Positions 27,131-40,584 of a stretch of DNA of 64,000 nt are shown one piece after another. Positions within the stretch are counted from its first letter, which is position 1; each line of letters opens with the position of its first letter. A model generated the notes under the pieces. That model saw only the letters and a list, made by a program, of their open reading frames with translations, searched no databases and was not told the DNA's origin. Location: positions 8,227,461 through 8,291,460 of the forward strand of contig NZ_CP114039.1 of assembly GCF_026965535.1 (NCBI RefSeq). Direction: 5' to 3'. The position numbers and the translations under genes were made by a program. The DNA comes from Corallococcus sp. NCRR. Lineage in GTDB: Bacteria; Myxococcota; Myxococcia; Myxococcales; Myxococcaceae.

Positions 27131-28642
27131 TCAGGGCACGGTCAATGCGCGCAGCAGGCGTCCACCACCCGGGCCGGCCACGCGCAACAGCAGCGTGCTG
27201 CCCTTGGGCGCGGCGCGGATGGCCGCGGCCAGTTCCTTCGCGCTGGCGATGGGCTTCTTGTTCGCCTCCACCACCAGCATGCCCGGCGTCAGCTGCGCGC
27301 GGTCCGCGGGCGAGCCCGGGACGATGTCGGTGATGAGCGCGCCGGCGCGCTCGGTGAAGCCCGCCTGGGACGCCGTGCGCGCATCCAGGTCCTGCAGGGA
27401 CACGCCCACGCGGCGCGAGCTGTCCTGCTCGTCGTTGGTCGACGGCTTCTTCTTGGACAGGCCCTCCAGGTCCGGCCGGGTGCCCATGGTCACCTTGACG
27501 TCCTGCTTCTTGCCGTCGCGGTAGAGGGTCAGCGTCGCGACGCTGTTGGGCTTCTTGAGCGCCACGGTGCGGGTGAGCTCGCTGTCGGAGCGCACCTGCT
27601 TGCCGTCCACGGCCACCACCACGTCGTCCGGCTTCAAGCCCGCCTTCGCCGCCGGGGAGTCGGGGGTGATCTGCGTGAGGATGGCGCCCTCGCTCACCGA
27701 CAGCTTCAGCGCCTGGCCCAGCTCGCGCGTGAGGGGCTGGATGCCCACGCCCAGCCAGCCGCGCGTGACGGCGCCCTCCTTCTCCAGCTGCGGCAGCAGC
27801 GCCTTGATGAGGTTGCTGGGCACGGAGAAGCCGATGCCCGTGCCTCCGCCGACGATGGCGGTGTTGATGCCCACCACCTCGCCCTTCATGTTGAAGAGCG
27901 GGCCGCCGGAGTTGCCGGGGTTGATGGCCGCGTCCGTCTGCAGGAAGTCGTCGTACACGCTGGCGCCGATTTCACGGGCGCGCGCGGACAGGATGCCCAC
28001 GCTCACGCTGGAGGCCAGGCCGAACGGGTTGCCGATGGCCAGCACCCAGTCGCCCACGCGCACGGCGTCCGAGTCGCCCAGCTTCACGCTAGGGAGCTGA
28101 TCCACCTTCTCCTTGATCTTCACCACGGCCACGTCGGTGAGCGGGTCGCGGCCCACCACCTCGCCCGTGAACGAGCGGCCGTCGTCCAGGCGGATGGTGA
28201 TGGTGACCGCGTCCTCGATGACGTGGTTGTTGGTGAGCACCAGGCCCTTGGGGTCGATGATGAAGCCAGACCCGGCGCCCTGGCGGATCTGCTCGCGCTC
28301 GCTGCGGCCGCCCCGGCCCCGCCCGTTGCCTCCGAAGAAGCGGTCGAAGAGCGGGTTGTCCTCCATGCCCTCCGGCACCTCCGGACGGGCCTGCACGTCC
28401 ACGTTCACCACGGCGGACTTCACCGACTCCACCAGGGGCGCCAGCGAGGCCAGCGACTGGGCCTCACGCGTGGCGGGCTGGAGGTTGCCGGCCTGACCGG
28501 TGACCGCCTGCTGCGTCTTGGGCGCGGCCGGCTGGGGAGCGGGAGCCTGCGCGAGGGCGAGCGTGGGCGACGCCAGCACCAGCACGGCGGCCACGAGCTT
28601 GCGACGGGACGAAGAGAGCGTGTGGGTCATGGATTTCCTCAA
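27131..28642 (-). CDS. degP: Periplasmic serine endoprotease DegP/HtrA (two PDZ domains)
   Basis: 503 aa with a signal peptide, a trypsin-like GNSGGPL catalytic Ser motif and two PDZ domains. Confidence 0.88.
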   Translation of the reverse strand: MRKSMTHTLSSSRRKLVAAVLVLASPTLALAQAPAPQPAAPKTQQAVTGQAGNLQPATREAQSLASLAPLVESVKSAVVNVDVQARPEVPEGMEDNPLFDRFFGGNGRGRGGRSEREQIRQGAGSGFIIDPKGLVLTNNHVIEDAVTITIRLDDGRSFTGEVVGRDPLTDVAVVKIKEKVDQLPSVKLGDSDAVRVGDWVLAIGNPFGLASSVSVGILSARAREIGASVYDDFLQTDAAINPGNSGGPLFNMKGEVVGINTAIVGGGTGIGFSVPSNLIKALLPQLEKEGAVTRGWLGVGIQPLTRELGQALKLSVSEGAILTQITPDSPAAKAGLKPDDVVVAVDGKQVRSDSELTRTVALKKPNSVATLTLYRDGKKQDVKVTMGTRPDLEGLSKKKPSTNDEQDSSRRVGVSLQDLDARTASQAGFTERAGALITDIVPGSPADRAQLTPGMLVVEANKKPIASAKELAAAIRAAPKGSTLLLRVAGPGGGRLLRALTVP

Positions 28643-28732: not shown

Positions 28733-30322
28733 TCAACCGGGCCGGTAGACGCGGTAGTCCAGCTCGGGGAACAGGTTGTTGCGTCCTTCGACGTGGGACA
28801 GCCAGGACTCGTCCACGGTTCCGGCGCGCACCTGATCGTGCAGGCGCAGGAAGCGCTGGAGGTGCTCCTTCGTGCGGCGCACGGCGTAGTCCACCATGGT
28901 GCCGGTCTTCATGATGAAGGCCCAGTCGGAGGACTGCGCCAGCAGCAGCTCACGCGCGGCCTGGTTCAGGGCCCGGCGCTTGAGCGACGGCGCGTCCGGG
29001 AAGTCCCGGGCCAGCTCCACCATCTGCCGCGCGGCGTGGTTCAGGTGCCGGTAGATCCAGTCGTTCGTGCCATCCAGCCACATGTTCGCGTAGCCGCCCG
29101 CGCCCCAGGACGACAGGGGCGGCGTGGCCACCTGGTTCTCCGGGTGCTCGCGCAGGTCGTCCAGCGGGCTGATGAGCGTGAAGCGGCTGGGGTTGCGCGC
29201 GGCCTGGCGGATGAGGGCGTCGATGAAGTGGGGACCCTCGAACCACCAGTGGCCGAAGAGCTCCGCGTCATAGGGCGCGACGACCACGGGCTTGCGGCCG
29301 CCCATGCGCGACGCGAGGTATTCGAACTGGCGCTCGCGGTTGAAGAGGAAGTTGCCCGCGTGGACCCAGGCGCGCTCGCGGGCGGCGGCCGGGTTGTAGG
29401 GCTGCTTGTCGTTCGTCTTGCCGGTGATGCGGAAGTACTTGAAGCCGGTGTTCTTACGGTCGCCGGTGGGCTGGATGAAGGGCCGGATGTAGTCCAGGTC
29501 CAGGTCCCAGCCGATGTCCCGGTAGAACTCGCGGTAGACGGGGTCGCCGGGGTAGCCGTGCTCGGTGCTCCAGACCTGCTGGCTGCTCTCCGGGTCGCGC
29601 GCGAAGGCGGCCACGCCGGGCTCGGTGAAGATGGGCGCGTAGGGGCCGTGCAGCGGGCGCGGCGTGGCGTCCGTGAGCGCGTGCGTGTCCACGAAGAAGT
29701 AGCGGATGCGCTCGGCGGAGAGGATGCGCTCCAGGCCCGGGTAGTAGCCGCACTCGGCCAGCCAGATGCCGGCGGGGTCGCGGCCGAAGTTCTGGCGGTA
29801 GTGGTTCGCCGCGACCGTCACCTGCGCGCGCACGGCCTCCGGCGTCTGCTGCATGAGCGGCAGGAAGCCGTGGGTCGCGTTGCAGGTGAGGATGTCCAGG
29901 TGGCCTGCGTCCTGGAGCCTGCGGAACGCGGCCACCAGGTCGCGCCGGTAGTGGTTGTGGTACGCGAGCCGCAGCGATTCGAAGTGGTCGCGGTGGAAGA
30001 CGGCCAGCGGGTGGAAGGTGGGGTCGTCCCGGGTGCGGTGCACCTCGCGCGCGCCCAGCTCGCAGAGCGAATCCAGCCGCTTCGCGTAGCGCTCCCGCAG
30101 CAGGTCGTCGTTGAGCATCGACACGAGCGTGGGCGAGAGCGTCATCGTCACCCGGAAGGGGACGCGGTCCTCGACCAGTCTGTCGAACACGCGCAAGAGC
30201 GGCAGGTACGTCTCGGAGATGGCCTCGTAGAGCCAGTCCTCCTCGAGGAAGTCTTCGTATTCGGGATGGCGGACGAACGGCAGGTGCGCGTGAAGGACCA
30301 GCGCGAGGGAGCCCAGGCTCAT
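28733..30322 (-). CDS. Glycoside hydrolase family 57, 1,4-alpha-glucan branching enzyme-like (DUF1957)
   Basis: Start at MSLGSLALVLHAHLPFVRHPEYE, the canonical GH57 N-terminus. The GH57 catalytic core is present throughout. Confidence 0.85.
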   Translation of the reverse strand: MSLGSLALVLHAHLPFVRHPEYEDFLEEDWLYEAISETYLPLLRVFDRLVEDRVPFRVTMTLSPTLVSMLNDDLLRERYAKRLDSLCELGAREVHRTRDDPTFHPLAVFHRDHFESLRLAYHNHYRRDLVAAFRRLQDAGHLDILTCNATHGFLPLMQQTPEAVRAQVTVAANHYRQNFGRDPAGIWLAECGYYPGLERILSAERIRYFFVDTHALTDATPRPLHGPYAPIFTEPGVAAFARDPESSQQVWSTEHGYPGDPVYREFYRDIGWDLDLDYIRPFIQPTGDRKNTGFKYFRITGKTNDKQPYNPAAARERAWVHAGNFLFNRERQFEYLASRMGGRKPVVVAPYDAELFGHWWFEGPHFIDALIRQAARNPSRFTLISPLDDLREHPENQVATPPLSSWGAGGYANMWLDGTNDWIYRHLNHAARQMVELARDFPDAPSLKRRALNQAARELLLAQSSDWAFIMKTGTMVDYAVRRTKEHLQRFLRLHDQVRAGTVDESWLSHVEGRNNLFPELDYRVYRPG

Positions 30323-30348
30323 AGGTCGGTCGGAGAAGCCGTGCGGGT

Positions 30349-32922
30349 TCACTTCCGTCCACGGCGCGAGGGCCGGGACTTGGAGGAGGACTTGGAGCCC
30401 GAGGGCTGGGGCTCCGGTGCTTTCGGGGCCGCCTTCGCGGGCTCGGCGGGTGGGGACTTCACGGCCTGCGTCTTCGCGGGCGGAGTGCTCGGAGCCGCCG
30501 GGCCTTCCACCTTCGCGGGCACGGAGGCAGGTGCGGCCCGTCGCGCGGCTTCAGTGGCCTCGCGGGCCTTGTCGAGGGCACGCTGTTCGGACGCGGAGGG
30601 ACCGCGAGCCACGCTCAAGGCCCACGGGTCCTTGGGAGGCTCCGGCTCCGTGGGCCGCCACGAATCCGTGGAGGCCATTTCCTGCGTTGATGGGGCGGAC
30701 AAGACCGAACCCGGAGCCTGCGCGGCGGGACGCGACGACGAGAGGTCCCGCGCTTCGAGCGCGTCGCCCTGTGAGCGCGGCGTCTCTGGAGACCAGGCAT
30801 CCGAGCCCCCGGCCGCACGCGATACCCCGGGCTGATCCGAAGCGCGATCCAGGGACAGGTGGCGCTGATCCGAAGTCCCTGCCGCTCGGGGCGCCGTGGG
30901 ATATTGCTGATCCGGCGCATCCGTGGCGCGATCCACGGACAGGTAGCGCTGATCCGAAGCGCCCGCCGCCCGTGGCACGGTGAGGTACTGCTGGTCCGAT
31001 GCGCCCGTGGCACGCTCCGCGGACAGGTACCGCTGGTCCGAAGCCCCAGCCGTACGCGGCACGGTCAGGTACTGCTGATCCGATGCGCCCGTGACGCGCT
31101 CGGCGGACAGATACCGCTGGTCCGAAGCGCCGGCCGCGCGAGACACGGTCAGGTACTGCTGGTCCGAAGCGCCCGCGGCACGAGGGACACTCAAGTACTG
31201 CTGGTCCGACGCACCCGCCGCGCGAGGCACGGTCAGGTACCGCTGATCCGAAATCCCCGGCGCATGCCGCGCACCCTGGGTCCCCTGCCCTCCCGCGACG
31301 TATCGCTGGTCCGAAGCGCCCGGTGCACGCGGCACCTCCAGATACCGGTACTCCGAAACGCCACCTGGCAGCGCCTCCCCGTACCGCTGGTCCGAAGCGG
31401 CCGGCGCACGCGGCACCTCCAGATACGAAGACGCCACGTCGTAGCGCTGCTCCGAGGCACCCGGTGCGCGCGGCACCTCCAGATACGGAGACGCCACGTC
31501 ATAGCGCTGGTCCGACGCGCCCGGAGCCAACTCCACGGCCAGGTAGCGCTGATCCGACGCCCCGGGTGCGCGGGACGGGGCCAGCACCGCGCCCTCACCG
31601 AGCGTCGCCTCCCCCACGCGCGCATACTGCTGATCCGACGCCCCTGGCGCTCGCGGCGCGCTCTCCAGATACGCCTCTTCCACGTAGCGCTGATCCGACG
31701 CCCCGGGGACGCGCGGCGCGTCGACATACGCCTCGGTGCGCTCGCGGTGGACCTCCGGCACATCCGCCACCCCGGCGCTCCCGGGCAACTTCACCCGGCG
31801 CCAGGTGACGTACTCGCGCTCCTCCACCCGGGGACCACGCGCGGTCGCCGCGGCGGGAACGGCTTCGCGCGACCGGTCCACCACCGGCGGAGGCGGCATG
31901 CGCAGGAAACGGATGGACGTGTCCTCCGATGGCCCCGCGGGCGGCAGCGTGGCCCGATTGGACGAATGTCCAATGCGGCGCGACCGGCCATCCGAACCGA
32001 CGAAGTGTGCCTCCACCCGGTACGTGCGCCCGGGCGTCATGCCCTGCAGATAGAAGCTGCGCGACTCCAGCGCGAAGTCCACCTCGCGCGACACGCCCTC
32101 GCCGTCGAACACCTTCATCACCGCGCGCGGCACCGGCAGGCCATCCAGCGCCCGGCTCCGGCTCGCGTCACTGAAGTCCCAGAAGACGAAGAGCGTGTGC
32201 GGATCCCTCGCGAGCAGCACCATCGCGTCGTCCTGGTAGTCCAGGGGCAGCATGGCCAGGTGCTCGTCGCGCTCGGGCGACACGTCCGCCGGAGGAAGGC
32301 GCGGCGCGTGCTCCTCCAACAGGTGATGGCGGCGCGCCTCCTTCTCTCCCGCCATCTTCGTCACGAAGAACCCCTCCACCAGGGGCTCGGCGGCATGCGG
32401 CGGCTCACTCGCGGGCGAGGGCGGCGCGGCGGCGGGCGGGTCCTCACTGGGAGCGCTCGACGGGCGCGGCGTGGGCGCTTCCGGCGACAGGGACAGCGTG
32501 TCCTCGTCGTCCGGATCGCGGCGCGCCTTCCCGCGGGCAGGGAACGTCACCACGCGCGCGGGCCGCGTCTTGGGGCCTCCGCCAGGCTCCGTGATGGGCT
32601 CCTCGGAAAGTTCTCGTGCCTGCGGCGCGGCGGCGCTCTCGGGCGGAGGCAGGGGCACGGACCCGGAGGTCGGAGCCTTGGCGGACTGGGACTCCGCCGG
32701 GCCGGAATCCAGGGTCCGCTCCTCGCCCCCCACGGCACCGGAGCCCCGCCGGGACGTCGCCAGCCCGGCCATGCGCGCGAGCCGCCCCAGGGCGGGAATG
32801 CGCTCGGCCAGCGAGGTGACCAGCTCCCGCCCGCGGGACGCGCCAGCTCCTTCCCGGAGGTATTTCCGGGCCAGCTGCCGCAGGTAGCTCACGGTGACGC
32901 CCTTCCGCTCATCCATGGACAC
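30349..32922 (-). CDS. Rho_N-like plus DUF4912 domain protein with a ~290-aa expansion of tandem 13-aa repeats (PRAxGASDQ[QR]YL[ST]V) and a Lys/Pro/Ala-rich C-terminus
   Basis: The N-terminus (VTVSYLRQLARKYL) resembles the Rho termination factor N-terminal motif, and the DUF4912 core is MVLLARDPHTLFVFWDF. About 22 degenerate repeats follow. Its stop overlaps the GH57 start region, suggesting co-transcription. Confidence 0.7.
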   Translation of the reverse strand: MSMDERKGVTVSYLRQLARKYLREGAGASRGRELVTSLAERIPALGRLARMAGLATSRRGSGAVGGEERTLDSGPAESQSAKAPTSGSVPLPPPESAAAPQARELSEEPITEPGGGPKTRPARVVTFPARGKARRDPDDEDTLSLSPEAPTPRPSSAPSEDPPAAAPPSPASEPPHAAEPLVEGFFVTKMAGEKEARRHHLLEEHAPRLPPADVSPERDEHLAMLPLDYQDDAMVLLARDPHTLFVFWDFSDASRSRALDGLPVPRAVMKVFDGEGVSREVDFALESRSFYLQGMTPGRTYRVEAHFVGSDGRSRRIGHSSNRATLPPAGPSEDTSIRFLRMPPPPVVDRSREAVPAAATARGPRVEEREYVTWRRVKLPGSAGVADVPEVHRERTEAYVDAPRVPGASDQRYVEEAYLESAPRAPGASDQQYARVGEATLGEGAVLAPSRAPGASDQRYLAVELAPGASDQRYDVASPYLEVPRAPGASEQRYDVASSYLEVPRAPAASDQRYGEALPGGVSEYRYLEVPRAPGASDQRYVAGGQGTQGARHAPGISDQRYLTVPRAAGASDQQYLSVPRAAGASDQQYLTVSRAAGASDQRYLSAERVTGASDQQYLTVPRTAGASDQRYLSAERATGASDQQYLTVPRAAGASDQRYLSVDRATDAPDQQYPTAPRAAGTSDQRHLSLDRASDQPGVSRAAGGSDAWSPETPRSQGDALEARDLSSSRPAAQAPGSVLSAPSTQEMASTDSWRPTEPEPPKDPWALSVARGPSASEQRALDKAREATEAARRAAPASVPAKVEGPAAPSTPPAKTQAVKSPPAEPAKAAPKAPEPQPSGSKSSSKSRPSRRGRK
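30840..31720. repeat. Intragenic tandem repeat array, ~39-bp period, ~22 copies (consensus CTG[AG]TCCGA[AT]GCGCCCG..GC.CG...AGGTAC), encoding GASDQ[QR]YL repeats on the minus strand
   Basis: Seen directly in the sequence and the translated ORF. The copies are imperfect (about 70-90% identity). Confidence 0.8.
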
Positions 32923-32959
32923 CTCGCCTCGTTATGACGCGGCATACAGGGGGTCAACG

Positions 32960-33011
32960 CATCCGTCACGGGATGTGTTGTTCCGCCGACCCCCTTCTTC
33001 ATCCGTCACGG
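32960..33011. promoter_or_regulatory. Two direct 12-bp repeats CATCCGTCACGG (32960-32971 and 33000-33011) in the divergent promoter between the DUF4912 gene and the GT4 gene
   Basis: Exact 12-mer duplicated at 40-bp spacing (about 4 helical turns) inside a 129-bp divergent intergenic region. Confidence 0.3.
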
Positions 33012-33051
33012 CCGATGACACCTCACCCCTGTCCAAGTATCCTGCGACCGC

Positions 33052-35895
33052 TTGAGTGACCTGCCCAGACTTCTCCTGTGCAGCTTTGACGTCATCCCCG
33101 GCCCGTCTGGCTCCTCACGCCGACTGACCGAGTATCTGAAGGCGTTGCCTGATCGCTTCTCCGTGGTGGTGCTGTCGGCGAAGACGCCCGACCACTCCCA
33201 TATCGAGAAGTACCAGGGCGCCCGGCTGCTCCGCGTCCCGGTAGGCTCCGGGGACCTGGCGTCGCGCATCCAGTCCTTTGAACGGGCCGTGCGCCGCCAG
33301 CTCGAAAGCGAGGACTACGCCCTCGCCCACTTCACGGACCCCTTCGGGGGGTACGCGCTGTGCGAGCTGAAGGCGGACTATGGCTACCGCCTCATCTATG
33401 AGGCGCAGACGTTCCCGTCCCAGGAGCTGCGCTACACCCATCCTCAGACGGACGGGGACCGCCGCTTCCTGTCGAAGATCCGCCGCCAGGAGCTGTTCTG
33501 CCTGATGAACGCGGACCTCGTCGTCACCGGCTCGCAGACGACGCGCGCGTTCATCCAGGGGCTGGGCGCGGCGGAGGACCAGCTGCGGACGATTCGCGCG
33601 CCCGTGGACCTGAAGCCGTACGACCCGGAGGTGCTCGGCGCCCCGGACGGTTCGCCCCTGCGCATGATGTACCTGGGCAGCCACGTGGGCTGGCAGGGCC
33701 TGCCCACCCTCCTGCGCGCCACGGCGCTCGCGGCCCAGCAGGTGGACGTGCGCCTGACGCTGGTGGGCGCGCACCATCCGGACTGGAAGCCCCACCTGGA
33801 GGACCTGGTCAACGACCTGGGCATCAAGGAGAAGGTCGACTTCCAGCCGCCCGTCGCGCACGACGACCTGGTCAAGGTGCTGGCGCTGGCGGACGTGGGC
33901 GTGCTGCCGCTGGACGACTCGGAGCGCAACCGGCTCCAGGGTGGACCGCTGGCCAAGGTCTCCGAGTACCTGGCCGCCGGCCGGCCGGTCATCGCCGCGG
34001 ACCTGCCCGTCACCCGCGAGCTGCTTCCGAAGGACGCGGCCCTCTTCTTCCCTCCGGGCGACGCACGCGCGCTCTCCGAGCGCATCCTGGACCTGGCGCG
34101 CGACGTGCCCCGCCGCGTGGCGCTGGGCAAGGCCGGGCGCGCGTTCGCGGAGAAGGTGCTGGACGCGGGCCTCATCCGGGGCCAGCTGCTGGACCTCTAC
34201 GACTCGCTGCTGGAGAAGCGCGGCCACGTCCCGGTCGAGGCCGCCAGCGAACCGCCCGACGTCACGATGACGGGCACGCCCACGAACCGGCTCGCGAGCC
34301 TGGGCATGCCGGAGGCGTCCCAGCCCGCGGCGCCCAAGCCGCCCGCGAAGCCCGCGGCCCAGGCCACGTCCGACGAAGCCGCCCCGCCCCCCGCGAAGGA
34401 TGGCGCGGAGGACGCGCCCGTGGTGATGGGCATGGCCCTGGACGACGGGATGGATACCCGGCTCGTCAAGACCGAGCCGGACATGCGGCCGGACGAAGTG
34501 CCCATGGTCATGGGCCTGCCGCTGCGCGAGTCCGCCAAGGCCCCTCCGGCCTCCGAGAGCAGGGACGCCACGCCGCCTCCTCCGGAGCCCCCGGCCGCGC
34601 CCCAGACGACCGCCGCCACCGCGAAGGACGAGGAGCCGGAACCGCTGGGAGGCCGTGGCTCGGAGCCGGCGCCGCCCACGGAGATGGTGACGAGCCCCCT
34701 GGTGAAGGCCCTCGGCTTGAAGGATGCCGGTGGGGACGACGCCGGGGATGCGGAGGCCCGCGCCTCCGAGGATGCCTCCGCTGGAGCGACGGCGGTGGTG
34801 CGCCGGCCGGTGGAGGTCGCCGAGGACGACACGAGCGCGCCAGCCCCCACGCCCATCGTGCGCCGGCCAGCCGCCGAGGACGAGGCCCCCGCGCCCACGC
34901 CCATCGTGCGCAGGCCAGCCTCCGAGGACGAAGAACGCGCCCCTACGCCCGTCGTGCGCAAGCCAGCCTCCGAGGACGAGGCCCCCGCGCCCACGCCAGT
35001 CGTGCGCAGGCCCTTGCCGGAAGACGAGCCTCCCGCGGCCACGCCCATCGTGCGGCGCCCCACCTCCCCCTCCGAGGATGAGGAGCGGGCCCCCACGCCC
35101 GTCGTGCGCCGGGCCGGCGTCATGCGCGATGAGGAGGAGGCCCCCGCGCCCACGCCCATCGTGCCCATGCGCTCGTTGCTGACCGGCGCGCGAAGCACGA
35201 ACGCCGGCCGTGCGCAGCGGCCGCAGGACTCCGCTCCCTCTGAACCCCCGCGTCTCTTCCCCACTCCCCCTCCCATGGCCGACGCGGACAAACCGCCCAT
35301 CCGTGGCGGCCTCGCCGCGGATCCAGGCCGGCCCGCCTCCCGCCCTCCGGTGCTCACGGAGTCCGACAAGCCGCCCATCCGGGGAGGCTCCATCTCCGAC
35401 GCGGACCGCCCGCCGCAGCTGCCGCCCCGCGCCGTCGCGCCGCCGCCCGTTCCGCGCCAGGGACCGCCGCCCCGGCTGAGCCCCACGCCGCCCGTGCTGA
35501 AGCCCTCCACGGCCACGGCCTCGGACGACGAGCCGGAGGAGATCGCCGCCGACGAGGCCCAGTCCCTGGACGACGACGCCGGGCACACGCCCGCCAACGC
35601 CAGCGCGGCGCTGGACGAGGCCGAGGAGATCGGCGCGGACGAGGTCCACGACGCGGACTCGCTCGACGTGGAGGCCGCGGACACCGAGGACCCGGGGCCG
35701 CCGCCCGCGCCGCCCGACTCCACCCTCAACCCGTGGTTCGCCCAGCTGGCGCACGGGTACTGTCCCCCCGAGGGCGCCCGCTTCGCCCGACCCACCCCGC
35801 CCACCAACTTCCCCGGGCGGGATCCGGAAGCAGGCGTGTCCCCCGGGTCGGTCCCCCCTGTCGGCCAGGGAGCGGTTCGCGGCAAGAACTCGTGA
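33052..35895 (+). CDS. GT4 (GT1-fold) glycosyltransferase, N-terminal ~400 aa, fused to a ~550-aa Pro/Ala/Glu-rich disordered tail containing six tandem ~19-aa repeats (APAPTP[IV]VRRPAxEDEx)
   Basis: Apparent TTG start. The GT4 C-terminal Rossmann half is recognisable (LTLVGAHHPD...VGVLPL...EYLAAGRPVIAADLP). The tail is low complexity with 57-bp DNA repeats. Confidence 0.7.
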   Translation: MSDLPRLLLCSFDVIPGPSGSSRRLTEYLKALPDRFSVVVLSAKTPDHSHIEKYQGARLLRVPVGSGDLASRIQSFERAVRRQLESEDYALAHFTDPFGGYALCELKADYGYRLIYEAQTFPSQELRYTHPQTDGDRRFLSKIRRQELFCLMNADLVVTGSQTTRAFIQGLGAAEDQLRTIRAPVDLKPYDPEVLGAPDGSPLRMMYLGSHVGWQGLPTLLRATALAAQQVDVRLTLVGAHHPDWKPHLEDLVNDLGIKEKVDFQPPVAHDDLVKVLALADVGVLPLDDSERNRLQGGPLAKVSEYLAAGRPVIAADLPVTRELLPKDAALFFPPGDARALSERILDLARDVPRRVALGKAGRAFAEKVLDAGLIRGQLLDLYDSLLEKRGHVPVEAASEPPDVTMTGTPTNRLASLGMPEASQPAAPKPPAKPAAQATSDEAAPPPAKDGAEDAPVVMGMALDDGMDTRLVKTEPDMRPDEVPMVMGLPLRESAKAPPASESRDATPPPPEPPAAPQTTAATAKDEEPEPLGGRGSEPAPPTEMVTSPLVKALGLKDAGGDDAGDAEARASEDASAGATAVVRRPVEVAEDDTSAPAPTPIVRRPAAEDEAPAPTPIVRRPASEDEERAPTPVVRKPASEDEAPAPTPVVRRPLPEDEPPAATPIVRRPTSPSEDEERAPTPVVRRAGVMRDEEEAPAPTPIVPMRSLLTGARSTNAGRAQRPQDSAPSEPPRLFPTPPPMADADKPPIRGGLAADPGRPASRPPVLTESDKPPIRGGSISDADRPPQLPPRAVAPPPVPRQGPPPRLSPTPPVLKPSTATASDDEPEEIAADEAQSLDDDAGHTPANASAALDEAEEIGADEVHDADSLDVEAADTEDPGPPPAPPDSTLNPWFAQLAHGYCPPEGARFARPTPPTNFPGRDPEAGVSPGSVPPVGQGAVRGKNS
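34837..35165. repeat. Intragenic tandem repeat, 57-bp period, ~6 copies, encoding APAPTPIVRRPA[AS]EDE repeats of the GT4 tail
   Basis: Seen directly in the sequence (GCGCCCACGCCCATCGTGCGCAGGCCAGCCTCCGAGGACGA...). Confidence 0.8.
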
Positions 35896-35994
35896 GGCAG
35901 CCGACCGAGCACCGCTCGGAAACTTCCCAAGCCTTGCGCCCGCCCGATAGGATGTGGCGGTTTTCACTGCACTTTTTGCTGGGTGAAGGGCTTC

Positions 35995-38900
35995 ATGGAG
36001 CGTCGCGTCCTCATCGTCGAAAGCCAGAACGACTTCGCACTCAGCATGGCCTCCGTGCTCAAGAGCGCGGGCTACAACACGGCCATGGCCACCACTGCGT
36101 CAGACGCGCAGCGGGAGCTGGAGAAGCGCCGACCCGACCTCGTCGTCGTGCGCGCGGAGCTGCCGGACCAGTCCGGCTTCGCCCTCTGTGGGCAGATCAA
36201 GAAGGGCAAGTGGGGCCAGAACCTCAAGGTCCTCCTGCTCTCCTCCGACTCCGGCGTGGAGGGTCTGAACAAACACCGTGAGACGCCGGCCGCCGCGGAC
36301 GGCTACCTCGTCATCCCGTTCGAGATGGGCGAGCTGGCCTCCATGAGCGCCGGCATCGTGCCGCCCGGCTCCGACGAGTCCGACGCGGACCTGGACGCCG
36401 CGCTCTCCGGCACCCCGCGCGAAGCCCCGCCCCCCATGCCCGGCGTGCGCACGGGCGCTCCGCCGAAGCTGCCCAAGCGCGAGCGCCGCAGCGCGATGAC
36501 GGACGAGGACAAGTCCTTCATGGACCGGGCCTTCTCCTCCATCGCGGACCGCAAGGCGGAGCTGCTCGCGGAGTCGCGTCAGCTCAAGCGCCCGCCCCCG
36601 CGCCGCGAGCTGATGGGCACGCCCGAGGGTAAGATCCAGATCCTCCGGGACGAATTGAAGACGCGCGAAGCCCAGCTCGCGCGCCTGTCGGAAATCTGGA
36701 GCGTCCGCGAGCGCGAGCTGCTCTCCGTCGAGGACCGCCTCCACGAGAAGGACGTGGAACTGCAGGGCCTGAAGATGCAGGTGGACGACCTGCTGCGGCG
36801 CTTCAACGACGCGCAGCAGTCCATCGTCCAGAAGGAGCGCGAGCACGGCGCCACCGTCGACGACCTGCTGCTCCAGAAGTTCTCCTCGGAGAAGGACCTC
36901 ATCGAGGTCGTCGCCTCCAAGGAGAAGGACATCAACGTCCTGCGCAAGGAGGTCAACCTCCGCGACGAGGAGCTGGCCCGGCGCGGCGCGGACCTGGAGT
37001 CCTGGCGCAACGAGTTCGACAAGCTGGAGAAGCACCTCGGCGTCGTCACGCTGGAGTTCGAGGTCAAGGAGCAGAAGCTCCAGGACACCGTCCGCGCCAA
37101 CGAGGCGGACATCCTCCAGCTGCGTGAGCGCGGCGATCAGTTCGAGTCCGAGCTGTCCCGCACCGTCAGCGAGCGCGACCAGCGCTACGCCGAGCTGGAC
37201 GGTGAGCTTCAGGCCCTCCAGGAGCGGCTGACCCAGACGGAGCAGGAGCGCGACGCCACCGTGCGCGGCCTGGAGGCCCGGGCCACCACGGCGGAGGAGC
37301 ACGCCAGCCGTTCGGACGCGGAGATTGAGCGCCTCAACGCCGAGCGTGCCGCGCTGGAGCAGCGCCTCACGCAGCAGGTGGCGGACCTCGAGTCCGACAT
37401 CTCGCGCGTCACCGGCGAGCGCGACCAACTCCGGCTGGACAAGGACGCGCTGGAGCAGGACCTCACGCAGCGCGTGGAGGAGCGGGACGGGAAGCTGTCC
37501 GCGCTCGACCGCGAGCTGCAGGAGACCATCGCCCGCAACGAGAACAGCGAGGCCGAGCTCAACGCCACCATCCAGCAGCACCGCGAGCGCATCGGTGAGC
37601 TGGAGGGCGAGGTCGAGGCCGTCAAGACGCACCTGGAGGACCGCGAGAACGAGCTGACCGCGGAGCTCCAGGCGCTGCAGCAGGCCAAGGACGCGCTGGA
37701 GCAGGACCTCACCAGCCAGTTGGAGGACCTGCGCGCGGCGAAGGACGCCCTGGAGGCGGACCTCAACGGCCAGATTCAAGCGCTCACCGAGCAGTTGGAC
37801 GCGGCCCAGCGCCAGGGCGAACAGCTCTCCGCGCGCGTGGCCTCGCTCGAGGACACCGTCTCCCAGCGCGACGGCACCATCGAGGGCCTGCAGACCGACG
37901 TCTCCGACCGCGACGCCCGCATCGCCGAGCTGACCGGCAACCTGGAGGCCACGAGCCAGCAGCTCTCCGAGACGCAGAGCACGCTCTCCAGCACGGAAGC
38001 CACCCTCGCGGAGACGCGCGGCGAGTTGGAGGCCACCAGCCAGCAGCTCTCCGAGACGCAGGGCACGCTCTCCAACACGGAGGCCACCCTCTCCGAGACG
38101 CGCGGCGAGCTGGAGGCCACGAGCCAGCAGCTCTCCGAGACGCAGACGCGCCTGGCGCAGACGGAGGAGACGCTCTCCACCACGCGCGGTGAGCTCGAAG
38201 CCACCAGCCAGACGCTGGCCACCACCGAGTCCACGCTCGCGCAGACGCAGGAAACGCTGGCGCGCACGGAGGCTACGCTCTCCGAGACGCAGGCCACGCT
38301 CTCCAGCACCGAAGGCACGCTGGCGGAGACGCGCGGCGAGCTGGAGGCCACCAGCCAGACCCTGGCGGACACCCAGTCCAAGCTCGCGCAGACGGAGGAG
38401 ACGCTCTCCACCACGCGCGGTGAGCTGGAGGCCACCAGCCAGACCCTGGCGGACACGCAGGCCACCCTCTCCAGCACGGAGGGCACGCTCGCGGAGACGC
38501 GCGGGGAGCTGGAGGCCACCAGCCAGACGCTGACGGACACGCAGGCGAAGCTCGCGCAGACGGAAGGGACGCTCGCGTCCACCCAGGGCGAGCTGGAGGC
38601 CACCAGCCAGACGCTGGCCACCACCGAGTCCACGCTCGCGCAGACGCAGGACACGCTGGCGCGCACGGAAGGAACGCTCGCCGACACGCAGGCCACCCTC
38701 TCCAGCACCGAAGGCACGCTCGCGGAGACGCGCGGCGAGCTGGAGGCCACCAGCCAGACGCTCACGCAGACCCAGGAGACCCTGGAGTCGACGCGCGCGG
38801 ACCTGGCGAAGGTCACCCAGCACCGCGACGAGCTGGACGCGGAGCTCAACGAGACGCGCGACATCCTCCAGGAGACCAACGGCCTCCTCGCCCGCACCAC

Positions 38901-40584
38901 CGAGGAGCGCGACGCGCGCATCGCGGAGCTGGCGGCGCTCAACGCGGCGAAGGACGCGCTGGAGCAGGACCTCACCGGCCAGATTGGCCAGCTGCGCGCG
39001 GACCTGTCGGAGACGCAGGGGCTCTACAACGCGGAGCGCACCGCCCACGCGGCGCTCGCGGAGGAGACCACCGCGCGCATCCACGCCCTCACCGGCGAGC
39101 GCGACAACCTCACCGCGGAGCTGAACGCCACCTCGCAGCAGCTGGCCGACACGCAGGGCCAGCTCGCCAGCACCCAGGACGCGCTGGCCCGCGAGGAGCA
39201 GGCCCACGCGCAGTCCCGCCAGGCCGCCGCCAGCGCCCAGGAGGAGCTTACGCGCCAGCTCACCGAGGCCCAGGCCAACGGCGAGGACCTGGCCGAACAG
39301 CTCATCGTCACCAAGCACGAGCTGGGCACGCGCGTGTCGGAAGTCACGCAGCTGTCCTCCACGCTCGCGCAGACGGAGAACGCGCGGCACCACCTGGAGG
39401 ACCGCCTCCAGACGCTCACCCACGAGTCGCAGCGCCGTGAGGAGCTCCTCCAGAACGAGGTCGACACCAAGGGCAAGGAGCTGTCGGACACGCTCCGCAA
39501 GCTCACGCACGTGACGCAGGAGAAGATGCGTCAGGCGGAGGTGCTCAACCGCGAGGTCACCACCCGCACGGAGCAGGTGAAGCAGCTGGAAGGCCAGCTG
39601 GAGCACCAGGCCTCCGAGGCGAAGAAGCAGGCGGACGCGCTCCACCAGCAGATCGCCAACGTCTCCGGCGAGCTGGACGGCGCGCGCAAGGCCATCGCGG
39701 ACCGCGACGGACAGCTCCAGCAGGCCGCGAACCAGCAGAAGAAGCTCACCAGCGAGCGCGACGGGCTGGCCGGACAGCTCCAGCAGGCCCAGGCCCAGGC
39801 GCAACAGCAGGCCCAGCAGGCCCAGGCCGCCGCCGCCGAGGCGAAGAAGCAGTCGGACAGCCTGGCCGCGAAGCTCGCCCAGGCCGAGCAGCGCATCGCC
39901 CAGCTCTCCCAGGAGGCCCAGAAGTTCGCCGCCGACACGGAGGCGAAGCTCAAGGACTCCCAGGCCCAGCTGCAGGCTCGCACCAAGAAGGCCCAGGACC
40001 TGGAGCTGGCGCTGGAGAACGCCCAGAGCACCCGCGCCCGCGCGGAGAAGGAGCTCAACGCTCGCGTCGCCGCGGCGGAGACCAAGGCCAACGAGGCGGC
40101 CGCCAGGCTCGCCACGGCGCAGAAGGACCGCAAGGACCTGGAGGCCCGTCAGGCCAAGGAGCTGGAGGACCTCAACGCCAAGCAGAAGGCGGAGCTCGAG
40201 CGCCGCGAGGCCATCAAGGCCCAGGAGGTCGCCCGCCTCCAGACGTCCGTCCAGGAGAAGAGCAAGGCGCTCAAGGTCGCCGAGTTGGAGCTGGCCCGCT
40301 ACAAGACCAAGGCCCCGGCCGCCGCCGCACCCGCCGCGAAGGCCAAGGCCACCGAGGAGGAGCACCTGGCCGCCACCGTCCAGGCGAACCCGGTCATCCC
40401 GGCCGCCGCCAAGCCCCCGGCCAAGGCCGCCGCCAAGCCCGCCGCGAAGAAGGCCGCCGCCGCGCCCACCCCCGTCCCCCTGGACGAGGAGGCCCCGGAG
40501 CGCACCATGGTGATGCAGCTGCCCACCGCCCCCGAAGCCGGTGAGGACGACTGGACGGCGCTCGTCGACGAGCTCGACAAGTAG
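35995..40584 (+). CDS. aglZ: AglZ-like gliding-motility protein: N-terminal pseudo-receiver domain plus a ~1400-aa coiled coil with near-identical 28-aa tandem repeats
   Basis: Start at MERRVLIVESQNDFALSMASVLKSAGY (an upstream GTG at 35983 is also in frame). The receiver-like fold lacks the canonical acidic pocket (ESQND and VRAELPDQSG replace DD...D), as in AglZ/FrzS pseudo-receivers. The remainder is heptad-repeat coiled coil. Size and architecture match AglZ (1395 aa in M. xanthus). Confidence 0.55.
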   Translation: MERRVLIVESQNDFALSMASVLKSAGYNTAMATTASDAQRELEKRRPDLVVVRAELPDQSGFALCGQIKKGKWGQNLKVLLLSSDSGVEGLNKHRETPAAADGYLVIPFEMGELASMSAGIVPPGSDESDADLDAALSGTPREAPPPMPGVRTGAPPKLPKRERRSAMTDEDKSFMDRAFSSIADRKAELLAESRQLKRPPPRRELMGTPEGKIQILRDELKTREAQLARLSEIWSVRERELLSVEDRLHEKDVELQGLKMQVDDLLRRFNDAQQSIVQKEREHGATVDDLLLQKFSSEKDLIEVVASKEKDINVLRKEVNLRDEELARRGADLESWRNEFDKLEKHLGVVTLEFEVKEQKLQDTVRANEADILQLRERGDQFESELSRTVSERDQRYAELDGELQALQERLTQTEQERDATVRGLEARATTAEEHASRSDAEIERLNAERAALEQRLTQQVADLESDISRVTGERDQLRLDKDALEQDLTQRVEERDGKLSALDRELQETIARNENSEAELNATIQQHRERIGELEGEVEAVKTHLEDRENELTAELQALQQAKDALEQDLTSQLEDLRAAKDALEADLNGQIQALTEQLDAAQRQGEQLSARVASLEDTVSQRDGTIEGLQTDVSDRDARIAELTGNLEATSQQLSETQSTLSSTEATLAETRGELEATSQQLSETQGTLSNTEATLSETRGELEATSQQLSETQTRLAQTEETLSTTRGELEATSQTLATTESTLAQTQETLARTEATLSETQATLSSTEGTLAETRGELEATSQTLADTQSKLAQTEETLSTTRGELEATSQTLADTQATLSSTEGTLAETRGELEATSQTLTDTQAKLAQTEGTLASTQGELEATSQTLATTESTLAQTQDTLARTEGTLADTQATLSSTEGTLAETRGELEATSQTLTQTQETLESTRADLAKVTQHRDELDAELNETRDILQETNGLLARTTEERDARIAELAALNAAKDALEQDLTGQIGQLRADLSETQGLYNAERTAHAALAEETTARIHALTGERDNLTAELNATSQQLADTQGQLASTQDALAREEQAHAQSRQAAASAQEELTRQLTEAQANGEDLAEQLIVTKHELGTRVSEVTQLSSTLAQTENARHHLEDRLQTLTHESQRREELLQNEVDTKGKELSDTLRKLTHVTQEKMRQAEVLNREVTTRTEQVKQLEGQLEHQASEAKKQADALHQQIANVSGELDGARKAIADRDGQLQQAANQQKKLTSERDGLAGQLQQAQAQAQQQAQQAQAAAAEAKKQSDSLAAKLAQAEQRIAQLSQEAQKFAADTEAKLKDSQAQLQARTKKAQDLELALENAQSTRARAEKELNARVAAAETKANEAAARLATAQKDRKDLEARQAKELEDLNAKQKAELERREAIKAQEVARLQTSVQEKSKALKVAELELARYKTKAPAAAAPAAKAKATEEEHLAATVQANPVIPAAAKPPAKAAAKPAAKKAAAAPTPVPLDEEAPERTMVMQLPTAPEAGEDDWTALVDELDK
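37930..38790. repeat. Intragenic tandem repeat, 84-bp (28-aa, 4-heptad) period, ~10 copies, high identity (ETRGELEATSQTLADTQATLSSTEGTLA)
   Basis: Seen directly in the translated ORF and the DNA. Copies are nearly identical, suggesting recent expansion or concerted evolution. Confidence 0.8.

Follow-up and report, generated by a model that had tools for sequence, protein, structure and literature searches.

Analysis of a 64,000-nucleotide stretch of the Corallococcus sp. NCRR genome (hereafter, the window) revealed that a DUF4912 gene followed by a GH57 gene constitutes a widespread but unstudied two-gene unit (DUF4912→GH57), and that the locus in the window is an unexceptional example of a syntenic block shared by every one of the Myxococcaceae and Archangiaceae examined. 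We tentatively propose, at a little short of an even chance, that this unit encodes a cytoplasmic α-glucan (glycogen-type) module in which the DUF4912 protein serves GH57 as an adaptor or scaffold. The underlying observation, made in a first-pass annotation of this DNA, was confirmed, while its interpretation was partly supported.

Organization of the locus

The gene order is htrA, a GH57+BE_C gene, a DUF4912 gene, a divergently transcribed GT4 gene and aglZ, and the Myxococcus xanthus counterparts of the last four are MXAN_2994, 2993, 2992 and 2991, respectively. ORF calls of the window reproduced the coordinates in the first-pass annotation, a Pfam HMM check recovered all three families that it had named (GH57, DUF4912 and GT4), and the protein lengths it gave held as well (855/857 aa for DUF4912 and 947 aa for GT4). 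The features discussed below are:

28733..30322, minus strand: GH57 + BE_C enzyme of AmyC type, 529 aa (Pfam; orthologue of MXAN_2994)
30349..32916, minus strand: DUF4912 protein, leading gene of the DUF4912→GH57 pair (PF16258; orthologue of MXAN_2993)
30853..31725, minus strand: 17-unit array ..(Y)LxVPRAPGASDQ(R/Q)Y.. (motif list and TRF)
31918..32238, minus strand: DUF4912 core domain, FN3-like β-sandwich fold
32794..32898, minus strand: degenerate helix-extended-helix (Rho_N-like) motif VTVSYLRQLARKYLREGAGASRGRELVTSLAERIP, position conserved across the family
32917..33051, no strand: divergent promoter region (promoter scan and 12-sequence alignment)
32951-32959, minus strand: GGGTCAACG box, TTGACC on the minus strand, putative -35 for DUF4912
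33015-33020 and 33038-33043: ATGACA, 17 nt, TATCCT, putative GT4 promoter
33052..34227, plus strand: GT4 catalytic domain, residues 1-392 (Pfam; orthologue of MXAN_2992)
34228..35895, plus strand: acidic Pro/Ala-rich disordered tail, 555 aa, net charge -39
35722-35823, plus strand: C-terminal island LNPWFAQLAHGYCPPEG..FARHTPPT.FPGRD, conserved in orthologues

The locus is flanked by genes for HtrA, a GDSL lipase, a HAMP-GAF-GGDEF protein, Cu-oxidase_4, LysM and AglZ. The syntenic flanks contain no glgC, GT5 glgA, GH13 glgB or glgP; with htrA, the GDSL lipase, the GGDEF protein and aglZ as neighbours, this is not a classical glgBXCAP operon, in agreement with the first-pass view. Wzx/Wzy/ABC and synthase genes are likewise missing from the flanks, as are genes for export, polymerase, methyltransferase or acyltransferase functions.

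ATG 30322, 26 nt past the DUF4912 stop, is the most likely GH57 start, because the resulting MSLGSLALVLHAHLP N-terminus is common to orthologues and to Thermotoga maritima AmyC. The two coding regions had been described as abutting or overlapping; the close spacing stands, while an overlap (GTGA) arises solely with the alternative GTG at 30352. The most likely DUF4912 start is ATG 32916, giving 855 aa (857 aa if GTG 32922 is used), based on a 100% identical 855-aa NCBI protein in Corallococcus. With this start, the spacer to the divergent GT4 gene measures 135 bp rather than the 129 bp first reported. A promoter scan of this region returned one site against 0.0 expected. The 12-sequence alignment, which spans several genera, showed conservation of GGGTCAACG, TGACA, a -10 core of GTAT-CT (TATCCT or TATTCT) and the TTG codon at which GT4 starts, predicted to be near-leaderless. 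The two exact 12-bp direct repeats noted at first pass are present (CATCCGTCACGG at 32960-32971 and 33000-33011), and the 64 kb window holds exactly these two copies with no third exact copy. We considered this repeat as a conserved operator and rejected it since its conservation is not deep: the first copy is conserved solely in Corallococcus, and the second has diverged in three of four other Corallococcus species.

The GH57 enzyme is AmyC-like and lacks the flexible loop

On the ORF at 28733-30352(-), Pfam identified Glyco_hydro_57 (3e-31, 109.2 bits against a gathering score of 21.2) and BE_C (4e-42, 143.1 bits against 25). The closest solved relative is T. maritima AmyC (2b5d, E 7e-169), to which the protein is 50% identical over its full length, gap-free at the loop. 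Both the catalytic Glu (nucleophile, CSR-3, WLAECGYY) and Asp (acid/base, CSR-4, DAELFGHWW) are invariant in an alignment of this GH57, AmyC and three other GH57s. In Thermus/Thermococcus-type GH57 glycogen-branching enzymes (GBEs), a flexible loop of 17-22 residues covers the active site and β5-β6 strands are present (PMC9291813). Both of these hallmarks of 'true' branching enzymes are absent here, as there is no insertion relative to AmyC, which itself lacks both. We also rejected assignment to the Thermus or Thermococcus type by NCBIfam equivalogs; scores of 321 and 316 bits fall far under the cutoffs of 1000 and 920, and GH57 is thus not filed with either. The 'branching enzyme' label of the first-pass annotation was therefore revised, given the missing loop in the AmyC alignment, to an AmyC-type, loop-deficient GH57 GBE-like enzyme.

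AmyC is a biochemically demonstrated GBE with high hydrolytic activity (PMC6616209). However, the loop required for good branching activity is missing from ~92% of the sequences classed as GH57 glycogen-branching enzymes, and this loop-deficient class (including the M. tuberculosis enzyme) has little or no activity on amylose; its in-vivo substrate and pathway have been described as unknown, and it has been proposed to serve not-yet-identified pathways outside glycogen synthesis (PMC9291813). MXAN_2994 (locus tag from PMC12802240) has a single mention in the literature, as a proximity-labelling hit. No literature that we found on AmyC biochemistry considers a DUF4912 partner.

The DUF4912 protein combines a conserved core with an expanded repeat array

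Pfam DUF4912 (PF16258) matched residues 229-335 of the ORF at 30349-32922(-) (1.4e-18; 67.7 bits, cutoff 29.4), and a profile of DUF4912 orthologues recovered 1611 cluster representatives at E<=1e-3. The protein has a confident FN3-like core flanked by disordered segments. The FN3-like fold is generic and uninformative on ligand, and a PDB sequence search with the protein yielded only noise (E about 0.5). No literature on MXAN_2993 was found.

A Rho_N domain had been assigned to this protein at first pass, but Pfam found no Rho_N (PF07498) match in its N-terminal 80 aa even at E<=10; the aligned M. xanthus and Hyalangium orthologues scored 24.6 and 23.5 bits, at the threshold (cutoff 24.9). 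These near-threshold scores suggest that the N-terminus is a degenerate homologue of a Rho_N-like helix-extended-helix, and Rho_N membership was rejected, the name surviving only to denote homology by position. Vulgatibacter-type DUF4912 members lack the element altogether. The linker here is P/A/S-rich with a net charge of merely +2, and long K/A/P-rich linkers are seen in several orthologues and distant DUF4912 members, for which some sources use the name 'AlgP'.

The motif ..PRAPGASDQRY.. occurs 17 times at a spacing of 14-27 aa, with the last ten copies at an exact 14-aa (42-bp) period. At the DNA level, tandem arrays of 42/84 bp (30842-31252) and 39/60 bp (31310-31524) are present, and TRF reported an 84-bp super-period with 4.9 copies and 81% match. 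SDQ(R/Q)Y is found in 7-16 copies in Corallococcus and 1-5 copies in most Myxococcus, while Archangium and Stigmatella have GSSEQ variants in its place. From Vulgatibacter to Corallococcus, the (A/S)S(D/E) core of the motif is retained, and the unrelated high-GC loci L130, L146 and L167 have GASE-type tandem arrays as well. The 17 PGASDQRY units represent lineage-specific growth of what was ancestrally one 'SGG…LG(A/S)SE' motif located after the domain.

The long low-complexity extensions reported for both non-hydrolase proteins were evident as repeats and disorder, and AF2 predicted no structure for either tail. They are not special to this genome, as had been supposed: a length comparison found all orthologues to be extended, with DUF4912 proteins of 476-939 aa and GT4 proteins of about 640-1590 aa.

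The GT4 protein carries a disordered tail with conserved islands

Five GT4/GT1 clan models, including Glyco_trans_1_4, matched residues 19-366 of the ORF at 33052-35895(+) (Glyco_transf_4, 43.2 bits against 28.5; Glycos_transf_1, 57.9 bits against 26.4). The catalytic domain is 70-99% identical among Myxococcaceae and Archangiaceae loci, and its closest solved relative is merely SPS 6kih (E 2e-11). Neither GlgA model (TIGR02149 or TIGR02095) is among its 14 NCBIfam matches, the best of which are weak exopolysaccharide-type GT4s (42-53 bits), and it is 21-23% identical to the GlgA-like GT4s of metagenome loci L105, L132 and L161. Going by sequence, the Corallococcus GT4 is not GlgA-like.

The tail contains six A-P-T-P-I/V-V-R-R units, encoded by a 48-bp DNA array at 34831-35054, and only Corallococcus and its close relatives have these APTPIVRR repeats. 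It also contains islands comprising TGTPTNR, DTRLxKTEP..PPVVMGLPLRE and two EEPEEIS motifs, in addition to the C-terminal island; across 70 GT4 orthologues, four tail islands are nearly invariant and the linkers variable. In an AF2 model of the full-length protein, the tail had 10-residue block means of about 34-52 pLDDT and a short helix at 894-900 as its sole secondary structure, and the C-terminal Rossmann domain had block means mostly of 72-97. No docking of the C-terminal peptide on the catalytic domain was seen in this model, in which the N-terminal domain was poorly modelled and the tail was of low confidence.

GT4 is limited to Myxococcaceae and Archangiaceae and is missing beside the pair in Anaeromyxobacter (Anaeromyxobacteraceae) and Vulgatibacter. 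It is co-directional with aglZ, across a gap of 87 nt here and 99 nt in M. xanthus, and an aglZ-like receiver domain lies beside GT4 wherever sufficient DNA lay beyond it. At the MAG locus L086, an aglZ-like receiver gene adjoins DUF4912 without GT4. We found no literature on MXAN_2992, including any motility phenotype.

DUF4912 and GH57 are paired across distant genomes

In all 76 evaluable Myxococcia genome loci, DUF4912 is immediately followed by GH57 (80 loci were scanned, of which the remaining 4 run into a contig edge). Spacing within the pair is -4 to 26 nt in M. xanthus, Archangium, Vulgatibacter and Anaeromyxobacter. The genome scan used an alignment of the closer DUF4912 set (A4), the divergent set (A3) being too variable; because A4 restricted the scan to Myxococcia, a wider test was begun from the GH57 side in metagenomes. 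Among 80 metagenome loci chosen solely by GH57 similarity to T. maritima AmyC (4 of them without upstream DNA), 58 had a DUF4912 ORF directly upstream of GH57, over 26-72% GC, and one more had DUF4912 downstream. The nearest metagenomic AmyC relatives (57-60% identity; L088-L090) have a DUF4912 gene directly upstream. The pair was also found on one distant non-myxobacterial contig. By contrast, 18 of the 76 evaluable AmyC-like loci, several of which appear cyanobacterial, had no detectable DUF4912 beside GH57, indicating that GH57 is not strictly dependent on DUF4912; one distant DUF4912 gene had no GH57 neighbour. No literature linking DUF4912 with GH57 was found.

The first-pass annotation had regarded GH57, DUF4912 and GT4 as a recurrent neighbourhood. 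This holds for the DUF4912→GH57 pair but not for the triad: only about 20/80 distant loci have a glycosyltransferase within 5 kb, either a GT5 GlgA or a GlgA-like GT4. GT5 GlgA occurs in nine of these metagenome loci (two of which were tested and scored 555 and 558 bits, the cutoff being 328), and about nine have GT4s with glgA_Coryne as the best model. The adjacency of bona fide glgA to the pair in other lineages favours glycogen-type α-glucan metabolism rather than disfavouring it, contrary to the earlier view that this is not a glycogen-like pathway.

Cellular location

The N-termini of the three proteins are conserved catalytic or fold elements. Their maximal 19-residue Kyte-Doolittle values are 0.95, 0.79 and 1.16, and none of them showed a hydrophobic stretch on this scale that would point to export or membrane anchoring. 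On hydrophobicity, envelope anchoring was rejected as unsupported. The scaffolded or envelope-anchored machine proposed at first pass accordingly loses its anchor for want of a membrane segment, while a scaffold is plausible given disordered extensions with peptide motifs conserved across genera.

A model for the DUF4912-GH57 module

The core of the proposed module would be the co-transcribed, closely spaced DUF4912→GH57 pair. GH57 would act as an AmyC-type retaining glucanotransferase/hydrolase without the flexible loop, and DUF4912 as a non-catalytic partner with a degenerate N-terminal helix-extended-helix of the nucleic-acid/polyanion type. DUF4912 may bind or position GH57, and possibly a glucan synthase, on a polymer substrate, or it may set GH57 activity; more motif copies would raise the valency of the scaffold. 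GT4 may be a later addition in Myxococcaceae and Archangiaceae that shares a promoter region with DUF4912 and combines an acidic disordered tether with a putative, conserved C-terminal docking peptide. We infer the physical interaction, the scaffold role, the α-glucan substrate in myxobacteria and the placement of GT4 in the same pathway. Several observations count against this model: a spread of 7-16 copies within one genus and DNA units that are 81% alike are also expected of neutral slippage in a tolerant disordered region, the two genes are not always neighbours in distant loci, loop-deficient GH57s have been proposed to play no part in glycogen synthesis (PMC9291813), and GT4 shows no affinity in sequence to glucan synthases.

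There are other readings of the DUF4912 protein. GH57 might act alone in glycogen turnover as an ordinary soluble enzyme, with DUF4912 dispensable and its repeats, like those of the GT4 tail, the product of slippage without a valency function. The varying SDQ(R/Q)Y number among close Corallococcus species, DNA units that are 71-90% alike (as in recent slippage), the structureless AF2 tails, the narrow range of APTPIVRR and the 18 AmyC-like loci without adjacent DUF4912 would all fit. Nevertheless, we regard such drift as unlikely: the (P/L)G(A/S)S(D/E) core and its post-domain position are kept across the class and beyond, the four GT4 tail islands barely vary, and the tight DUF4912→GH57 spacing persists over the entire GC range. 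We see still less reason to view DUF4912 as a nucleic-acid- or nucleoid-binding regulator that controls expression or tethers GH57 to the nucleoid. Its Rho_N/SAP-like helix-extended-helix, at the Rho_N threshold in orthologues, and the histone-H1/AlgP-like K/A/P-rich linkers of several orthologues and distant members suggest this role, but it is very improbable here because the motif is degenerate, the linker is P/A/S-rich and nearly uncharged (+2), Vulgatibacter-type members lack the motif, and the sole constant partner is a carbohydrate-active enzyme.

Other readings concern the glycan. GT4 may belong with aglZ as a motility- or polarity-linked enzyme acting on a protein or surface glycan, its adjacency to DUF4912 being an accident of synteny. 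This would account for its orientation towards a gliding-motility gene with an adjoining aglZ-like receiver, for its absence beside the pair in Anaeromyxobacteraceae and Vulgatibacter, for its exopolysaccharide-type rather than GlgA-type matches, and for the receiver gene next to DUF4912 in L086. We consider it rather unlikely, though it deserves serious weight, since other phyla have a GT4 or GlgA at the same divergent-upstream or downstream place by DUF4912-GH57, the 135-bp promoter region is shared and has elements conserved across genera, the flanks contain no export or polymerase genes, and the literature yielded no motility phenotype for MXAN_2992. In M. tuberculosis, Rv3031 (GH57) and Rv3032 (a GT4 α-1,4-glucosyltransferase) belong to the methylglucose lipopolysaccharide cluster, an arrangement of GH57 beside GT4 that is not known to include DUF4912. 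By analogy, GH57 and GT4 could build a small α-glucan of specialised type instead of storage glycogen, in line with the low amylose activity of the loop-deficient class and the other pathways proposed for it (PMC9291813). The lack of methyltransferase and acyltransferase genes in the flanks and the adjacency of the pair to bona fide glgA in other lineages make this highly doubtful.

A more ambitious version of the adaptor model, which we hold to be quite improbable, is that DUF4912 serves as an organiser or protein primer for loop-deficient GH57s, as do glycogenin or plant PTST-type granule-initiation scaffolds. Its GAS(D/E) motifs would be multivalent docking or Ser/Tyr glycosylation sites, GT4 in the Myxococcus group would be tethered to them via its C-terminal peptide, and α-glucan particles would be nucleated or shaped. 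If true, this would account for the near-inactivity of most GH57 'branching enzymes' on naked amylose in vitro.

A conserved, closely spaced upstream partner, DUF4912, has now been identified for AmyC-type enzymes. This pairing holds over widely differing GC content, often next to glgA. In myxobacteria, a highly conserved and uncharacterised GT4 sits directly upstream of the gliding-motility gene aglZ.

Comparison with known systems

T. maritima AmyC (TM1438, PDB 2B5D; 528 aa) and the Corallococcus GH57 (529 aa) share the GH57 (β/α)7 + BE_C architecture, the catalytic Glu/Asp and a short 'catalytic loop'; the latter differs in being mesophilic and myxobacterial. Classical glycogen clusters (glgB-GH13/glgX/glgC/glgA/glgP) resemble this locus in that an α-glucan-active enzyme adjoins a glycosyltransferase, and the DUF4912-GH57-glgA clusters of other phyla have the same pair followed by a genuine GT5 GlgA. 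Unlike both, the Corallococcus locus has no GT5 glgA, its glycosyltransferase being a divergent GT4 with a 555-aa tail. At Rv3031/Rv3032, as here, a GH57 adjoins a GT4, and the Corallococcus locus differs by having a DUF4912 partner and no methyl- or acyltransferase genes. Rv3031, too, is loop-deficient (PMC9291813).

The layout of GT4 (a conserved catalytic domain, a disordered linker of variable length and a nearly invariant ~35-aa C-terminal peptide) is reminiscent of that of eukaryotic glycogenin. Glycogenin consists of a GT8 domain, a variable linker and a conserved C-terminal peptide that binds glycogen synthase. The catalytic families differ (GT4 here and GT8 there); the likeness is one of architecture alone. 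Finally, the DUF4912 protein resembles other PF16258 proteins (for which 'Rho termination factor N-terminal domain-containing' and 'AlgP' are frequent annotations) in having the domain above the gathering threshold and in its order of helix-extended-helix, low-complexity linker, domain and S/E-rich motif tail. A C-terminal Ig-like 'LRPDGTF' domain, present in 11/60 metagenomic DUF4912 members, is absent from the Corallococcus protein, and its helix-extended-helix has decayed below detection. At about twice the usual 300-450 aa, the Corallococcus protein owes its length to the 17-unit array.

DUF4912 and GH57 form a conserved gene pair

Pfam matches well over threshold bear out the family assignments of the first-pass annotation for all three genes (GH57, DUF4912 and GT4), which lie between a protease gene and an orthologue of the gliding-motility gene aglZ in a window of ~70% GC overall:

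27131-28642, minus strand: htrA/degP, HtrA/DegP protease (TIGR02037, 457 bits), the next gene downstream of GH57
28733-30322, minus strand: GH57 with BE_C (Pfam)
30349-32916, minus strand: DUF4912 gene (Pfam)
135 bp between the DUF4912 gene and GT4: divergent spacer
33052-35895, plus strand: GT4 (Pfam)
35983-40584, plus strand: aglZ orthologue, with a receiver domain and a long coiled coil (66% identity to M. xanthus AglZ)

The DUF4912 protein is 100% identical to an 855-aa NCBI entry, 'DUF4912 domain-containing protein [unclassified Corallococcus]'. Aligned against its orthologues and AmyC, the Thermotoga maritima GH57, the window GH57 starts at ATG 30322, 26 nt past the DUF4912 stop (25 nt in M. 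xanthus). The order htrA/GH57/DUF4912/GT4/aglZ is common to M. xanthus DK1622 and Archangium. Synteny with htrA is kept in Corallococcus, Myxococcus, Archangium and Cystobacter loci of sufficient extent, and no htrA was detected next to the pair in Anaeromyxobacteraceae or Vulgatibacter loci. The family shares a syntenic block, of which the locus is an ordinary example. Because the M. xanthus orthologues of GH57 and AglZ are MXAN_2994 (PMC12802240) and MXAN_2991 (PMC4546325) and the order is kept, the DUF4912 and GT4 genes correspond to MXAN_2993 and MXAN_2992, on which a literature search found no papers.

Scanning genomes with a DUF4912 alignment yielded 80 loci, from Anaeromyxobacteraceae, Vulgatibacter, Corallococcus, Citreicoccus, Archangium, Cystobacter, Vitiosangium and MAGs. 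GH57 lies directly 3' of DUF4912 in 76 of them, with gaps of -4 to +26 nt by gene calls, and the remaining four stop at a contig edge. To reach beyond the class, we used aligned AmyC-like GH57s (reference, T. maritima AmyC) to scan metagenomes and sought DUF4912 ORFs with an HMM of the myxobacterial domains. This returned 80 loci (46-60% identity to AmyC, 26-72% GC), 58 with a same-strand DUF4912 ORF ending just before GH57, one with DUF4912 downstream and four without upstream DNA; all three of the closest AmyC relatives (57-60% identity) have the partner. Two distant DUF4912 genes were found independently, one followed by GH57 with BE_C and the other by no GH57. These results demonstrate that the conserved unit is DUF4912 followed by GH57, a coupling for which our literature search found no earlier description.

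Several partnerless AmyC-like GH57 loci have a SasA-like kinase upstream and look cyanobacterial, which suggests a cyanobacterial origin and a partner lost or never present in that lineage. The SasA-like (KaiB-fold plus HisKA) gene is often near such GH57s (scan loci L120, L121, L125, L134 and L152). Separately, the pair is present on a contig from the bin 'Fredinandcohnia sp.' (Bacillota; L039, DATGOH010000165.1); this contig is probably mis-binned, since both identities (DUF4912 segment, 51% to the Vulgatibacter-type query; GH57, 66% to the Corallococcus GH57) are within the Anaeromyxobacteraceae range.

The DUF4912 protein carries amplified repeats

The DUF4912 family comprises 1611 cluster representatives at E<=1e-3, and most members outside the Myxococcus/Archangium group have 300-450 aa. 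Across the whole family the order of parts is constant: first a helix-extended-helix, then a low-complexity linker, which many members have in K/A/P-rich form, a conserved 'EP..EGFFVARV' segment, the domain and an 'SGG…LG(A/S)SE' motif. AF2 modelling with 76 sequences predicted a confident β-sandwich (model residues 61-160; mean pLDDT of 10-residue blocks 94-98), then a less confident β-hairpin, with low-confidence flanks. The Rho_N domain proposed earlier gave no Pfam match in the window protein even at E<=10; orthologous N-termini score 24.6 (M. xanthus) and 23.5 bits (Hyalangium) against a cutoff of 24.9, and the segment is a decayed helix-extended-helix. In the metagenomic set, 11 of 60 DUF4912 proteins (including those of L091, L099, L118, L124, L135 and L161) have an extra conserved C-terminal β-rich domain (…ELIVYGATEPDA.VTI.G.PI.LRPDGTFS…), which is absent from myxobacterial DUF4912 proteins.

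The tandem repeats noted on first pass hold at both DNA and protein level, with 17 ..PRAPGASDQ(R/Q)Y.. units in the window DUF4912 protein. Vulgatibacter-type and many other proteins of the family carry the 'SGG…LG(A/S)SE' motif once; in Archangium and Stigmatella it is present as a few GSSEQ copies, in most Myxococcus as 1-5 copies of SDQ(R/Q)Y and in Corallococcus as 7-16. Three unrelated high-GC metagenomic loci (L130, L146 and L167) likewise have GASE in tandem, with 5-13 copies, and two of the three carry glgA downstream. The window array is therefore an old short motif amplified in this lineage rather than a new invention.

The GT4 glycosyltransferase is a lineage-restricted neighbour

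Of the 80 genome loci, 31 have GT4 in divergent orientation to DUF4912, and each of these is of Myxococcaceae/Archangiaceae type; GT4 is absent beside DUF4912 in Anaeromyxobacteraceae and Vulgatibacter. A glycosyltransferase lies within 5 kb in 22 of the 80 metagenome loci: GT5 GlgA accounts for nine of these, GT4s with glgA_Coryne as best model for about nine, and other GT4-type or unassigned ORFs for the rest. The recurrent triad proposed earlier thus stands as a nearby GT-B enzyme but fails for the window GT4, whose identity to the metagenome GT4s is only 21-23% and which is therefore a separate acquisition. Among PDB entries its best relative, at E 2e-11, is a cyanobacterial sucrose-phosphate synthase, its best NCBIfam matches are exopolysaccharide-type GT4s (42-53 bits) and no NCBIfam match is GlgA-type; the enzyme is far from anything characterised. 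Conservation is higher in its catalytic domain (70-99% identity across genera) than in the DUF4912 domain.

Every GT4 orthologue has a tail (total lengths ~640 to 1590 aa). In the window protein it is Pro/Ala/Asp/Glu-rich, has a net charge of -39, is predicted by AF2 to be unstructured and contains six APTPIVRR units. Several islands are nearly invariant:

TGTPTNR
DTRLxKTEP…PPVVMGLPLRE
two EEPEEIS motifs
LNPWFAQLAHGYCPPEG..FARHTPPT.FPGRD, ~55 residues from the end

aglZ always follows the window-type GT4 in loci that extend far enough. The window AglZ has 1533 aa versus 1395 aa in M. xanthus, the added length being expanded 28-aa 'ETRGELEATSQTLxxTQxxL' units (84-bp and 399-bp tandem arrays, 37935-38759). 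Many draft Corallococcus/Myxococcus assemblies have 3-9 kb contigs that start or stop inside the locus (L041, L050-L062 and others) and GT4 proteins annotated 'partial' (orthologues P0123, P0130-P0145); short-read assemblies are evidently broken by the repeat arrays of the GT4 tail, DUF4912 and aglZ. One Myxococcaceae MAG has an aglZ-like receiver gene as the immediate upstream neighbour of DUF4912, without an intervening GT4 (L086, 6028-6438), and one Vulgatibacter MAG encodes a receiver domain (42% identity) on the downstream side of GH57 (L026, 4695-5078). From these two arrangements, the receiver/DUF4912-GH57 neighbourhood may predate the GT4 insertion.

The divergent spacer contains conserved promoter-like elements

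Aligning 12 spacers drawn from several genera revealed an invariant GGGTCAACG, whose minus strand reads TTGACC, a plausible -35 of DUF4912. The GT4 side has a conserved (A/G)TGACA, 17 nt and TAT(C/T)CT. The conserved TTG start of GT4 is 8 nt past this promoter-like -10 (TATCCT; region 33015-33054), a spacing that suggests a leaderless or nearly leaderless GT4 mRNA with a non-AUG start, an unusual arrangement. The reported exact 12-mer, CATCCGTCACGG, is indeed present twice, 40 bp apart, with no further copy in the 64 kb. We rejected it as a deep feature: the first copy is conserved within Corallococcus only, and the second, which abuts the putative GT4 -35, has diverged in three of four other Corallococcus species. 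It may be a genus-level regulator site.

The module pairs a loop-deficient GH57 with a putative scaffold

The first-pass observations were confirmed, and their interpretation as a scaffolded or envelope-anchored glucan machine is partly supported. Envelope anchoring found no support: the module is cytoplasmic, with no hydrophobic segments found. Given glgA linkage in other lineages, α-glucan is the most likely substrate. Conserved and amplified motifs in disordered regions fit an adaptor or scaffold role for the DUF4912 protein; the variation in repeat number may yet be neutral. Judged by sequence, the GT4 could serve either the DUF4912-GH57 pair or aglZ. TurboID proximity labelling in M. xanthus enriched 11 proteins with the EPS response regulator EpsW, MXAN_2994 being one of them, and the authors note no known EPS role for it (PMC12802240).

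Two elements of the module are constant: a GH57 that lacks the loop, and a non-catalytic protein with an FN3-like domain and disordered segments. The best solved relative of the window GH57 is AmyC (2b5d, E 7e-169; 50% identity, catalytic Glu and Asp invariant), and the Thermus, Thermococcus and Pyrococcus glycogen branching enzymes (GBEs) score about half its bits. AmyC itself is a short-loop GBE whose hydrolytic activity reaches up to 30% (PMC6616209). Our alignment shows no insertion at the flexible-loop site of 'true' GBEs, and the window enzyme belongs to the loop-deficient majority class. Xiang et al. found the loop and β5-β6 strands absent from 92% of 2497 GH57 'GBE' sequences, reported low or no amylose activity for several loop-deficient enzymes and proposed that these act in yet-to-be-identified pathways (PMC9291813). 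The DUF4912-GH57 coupling is broad and bears directly on what such GH57 enzymes do.
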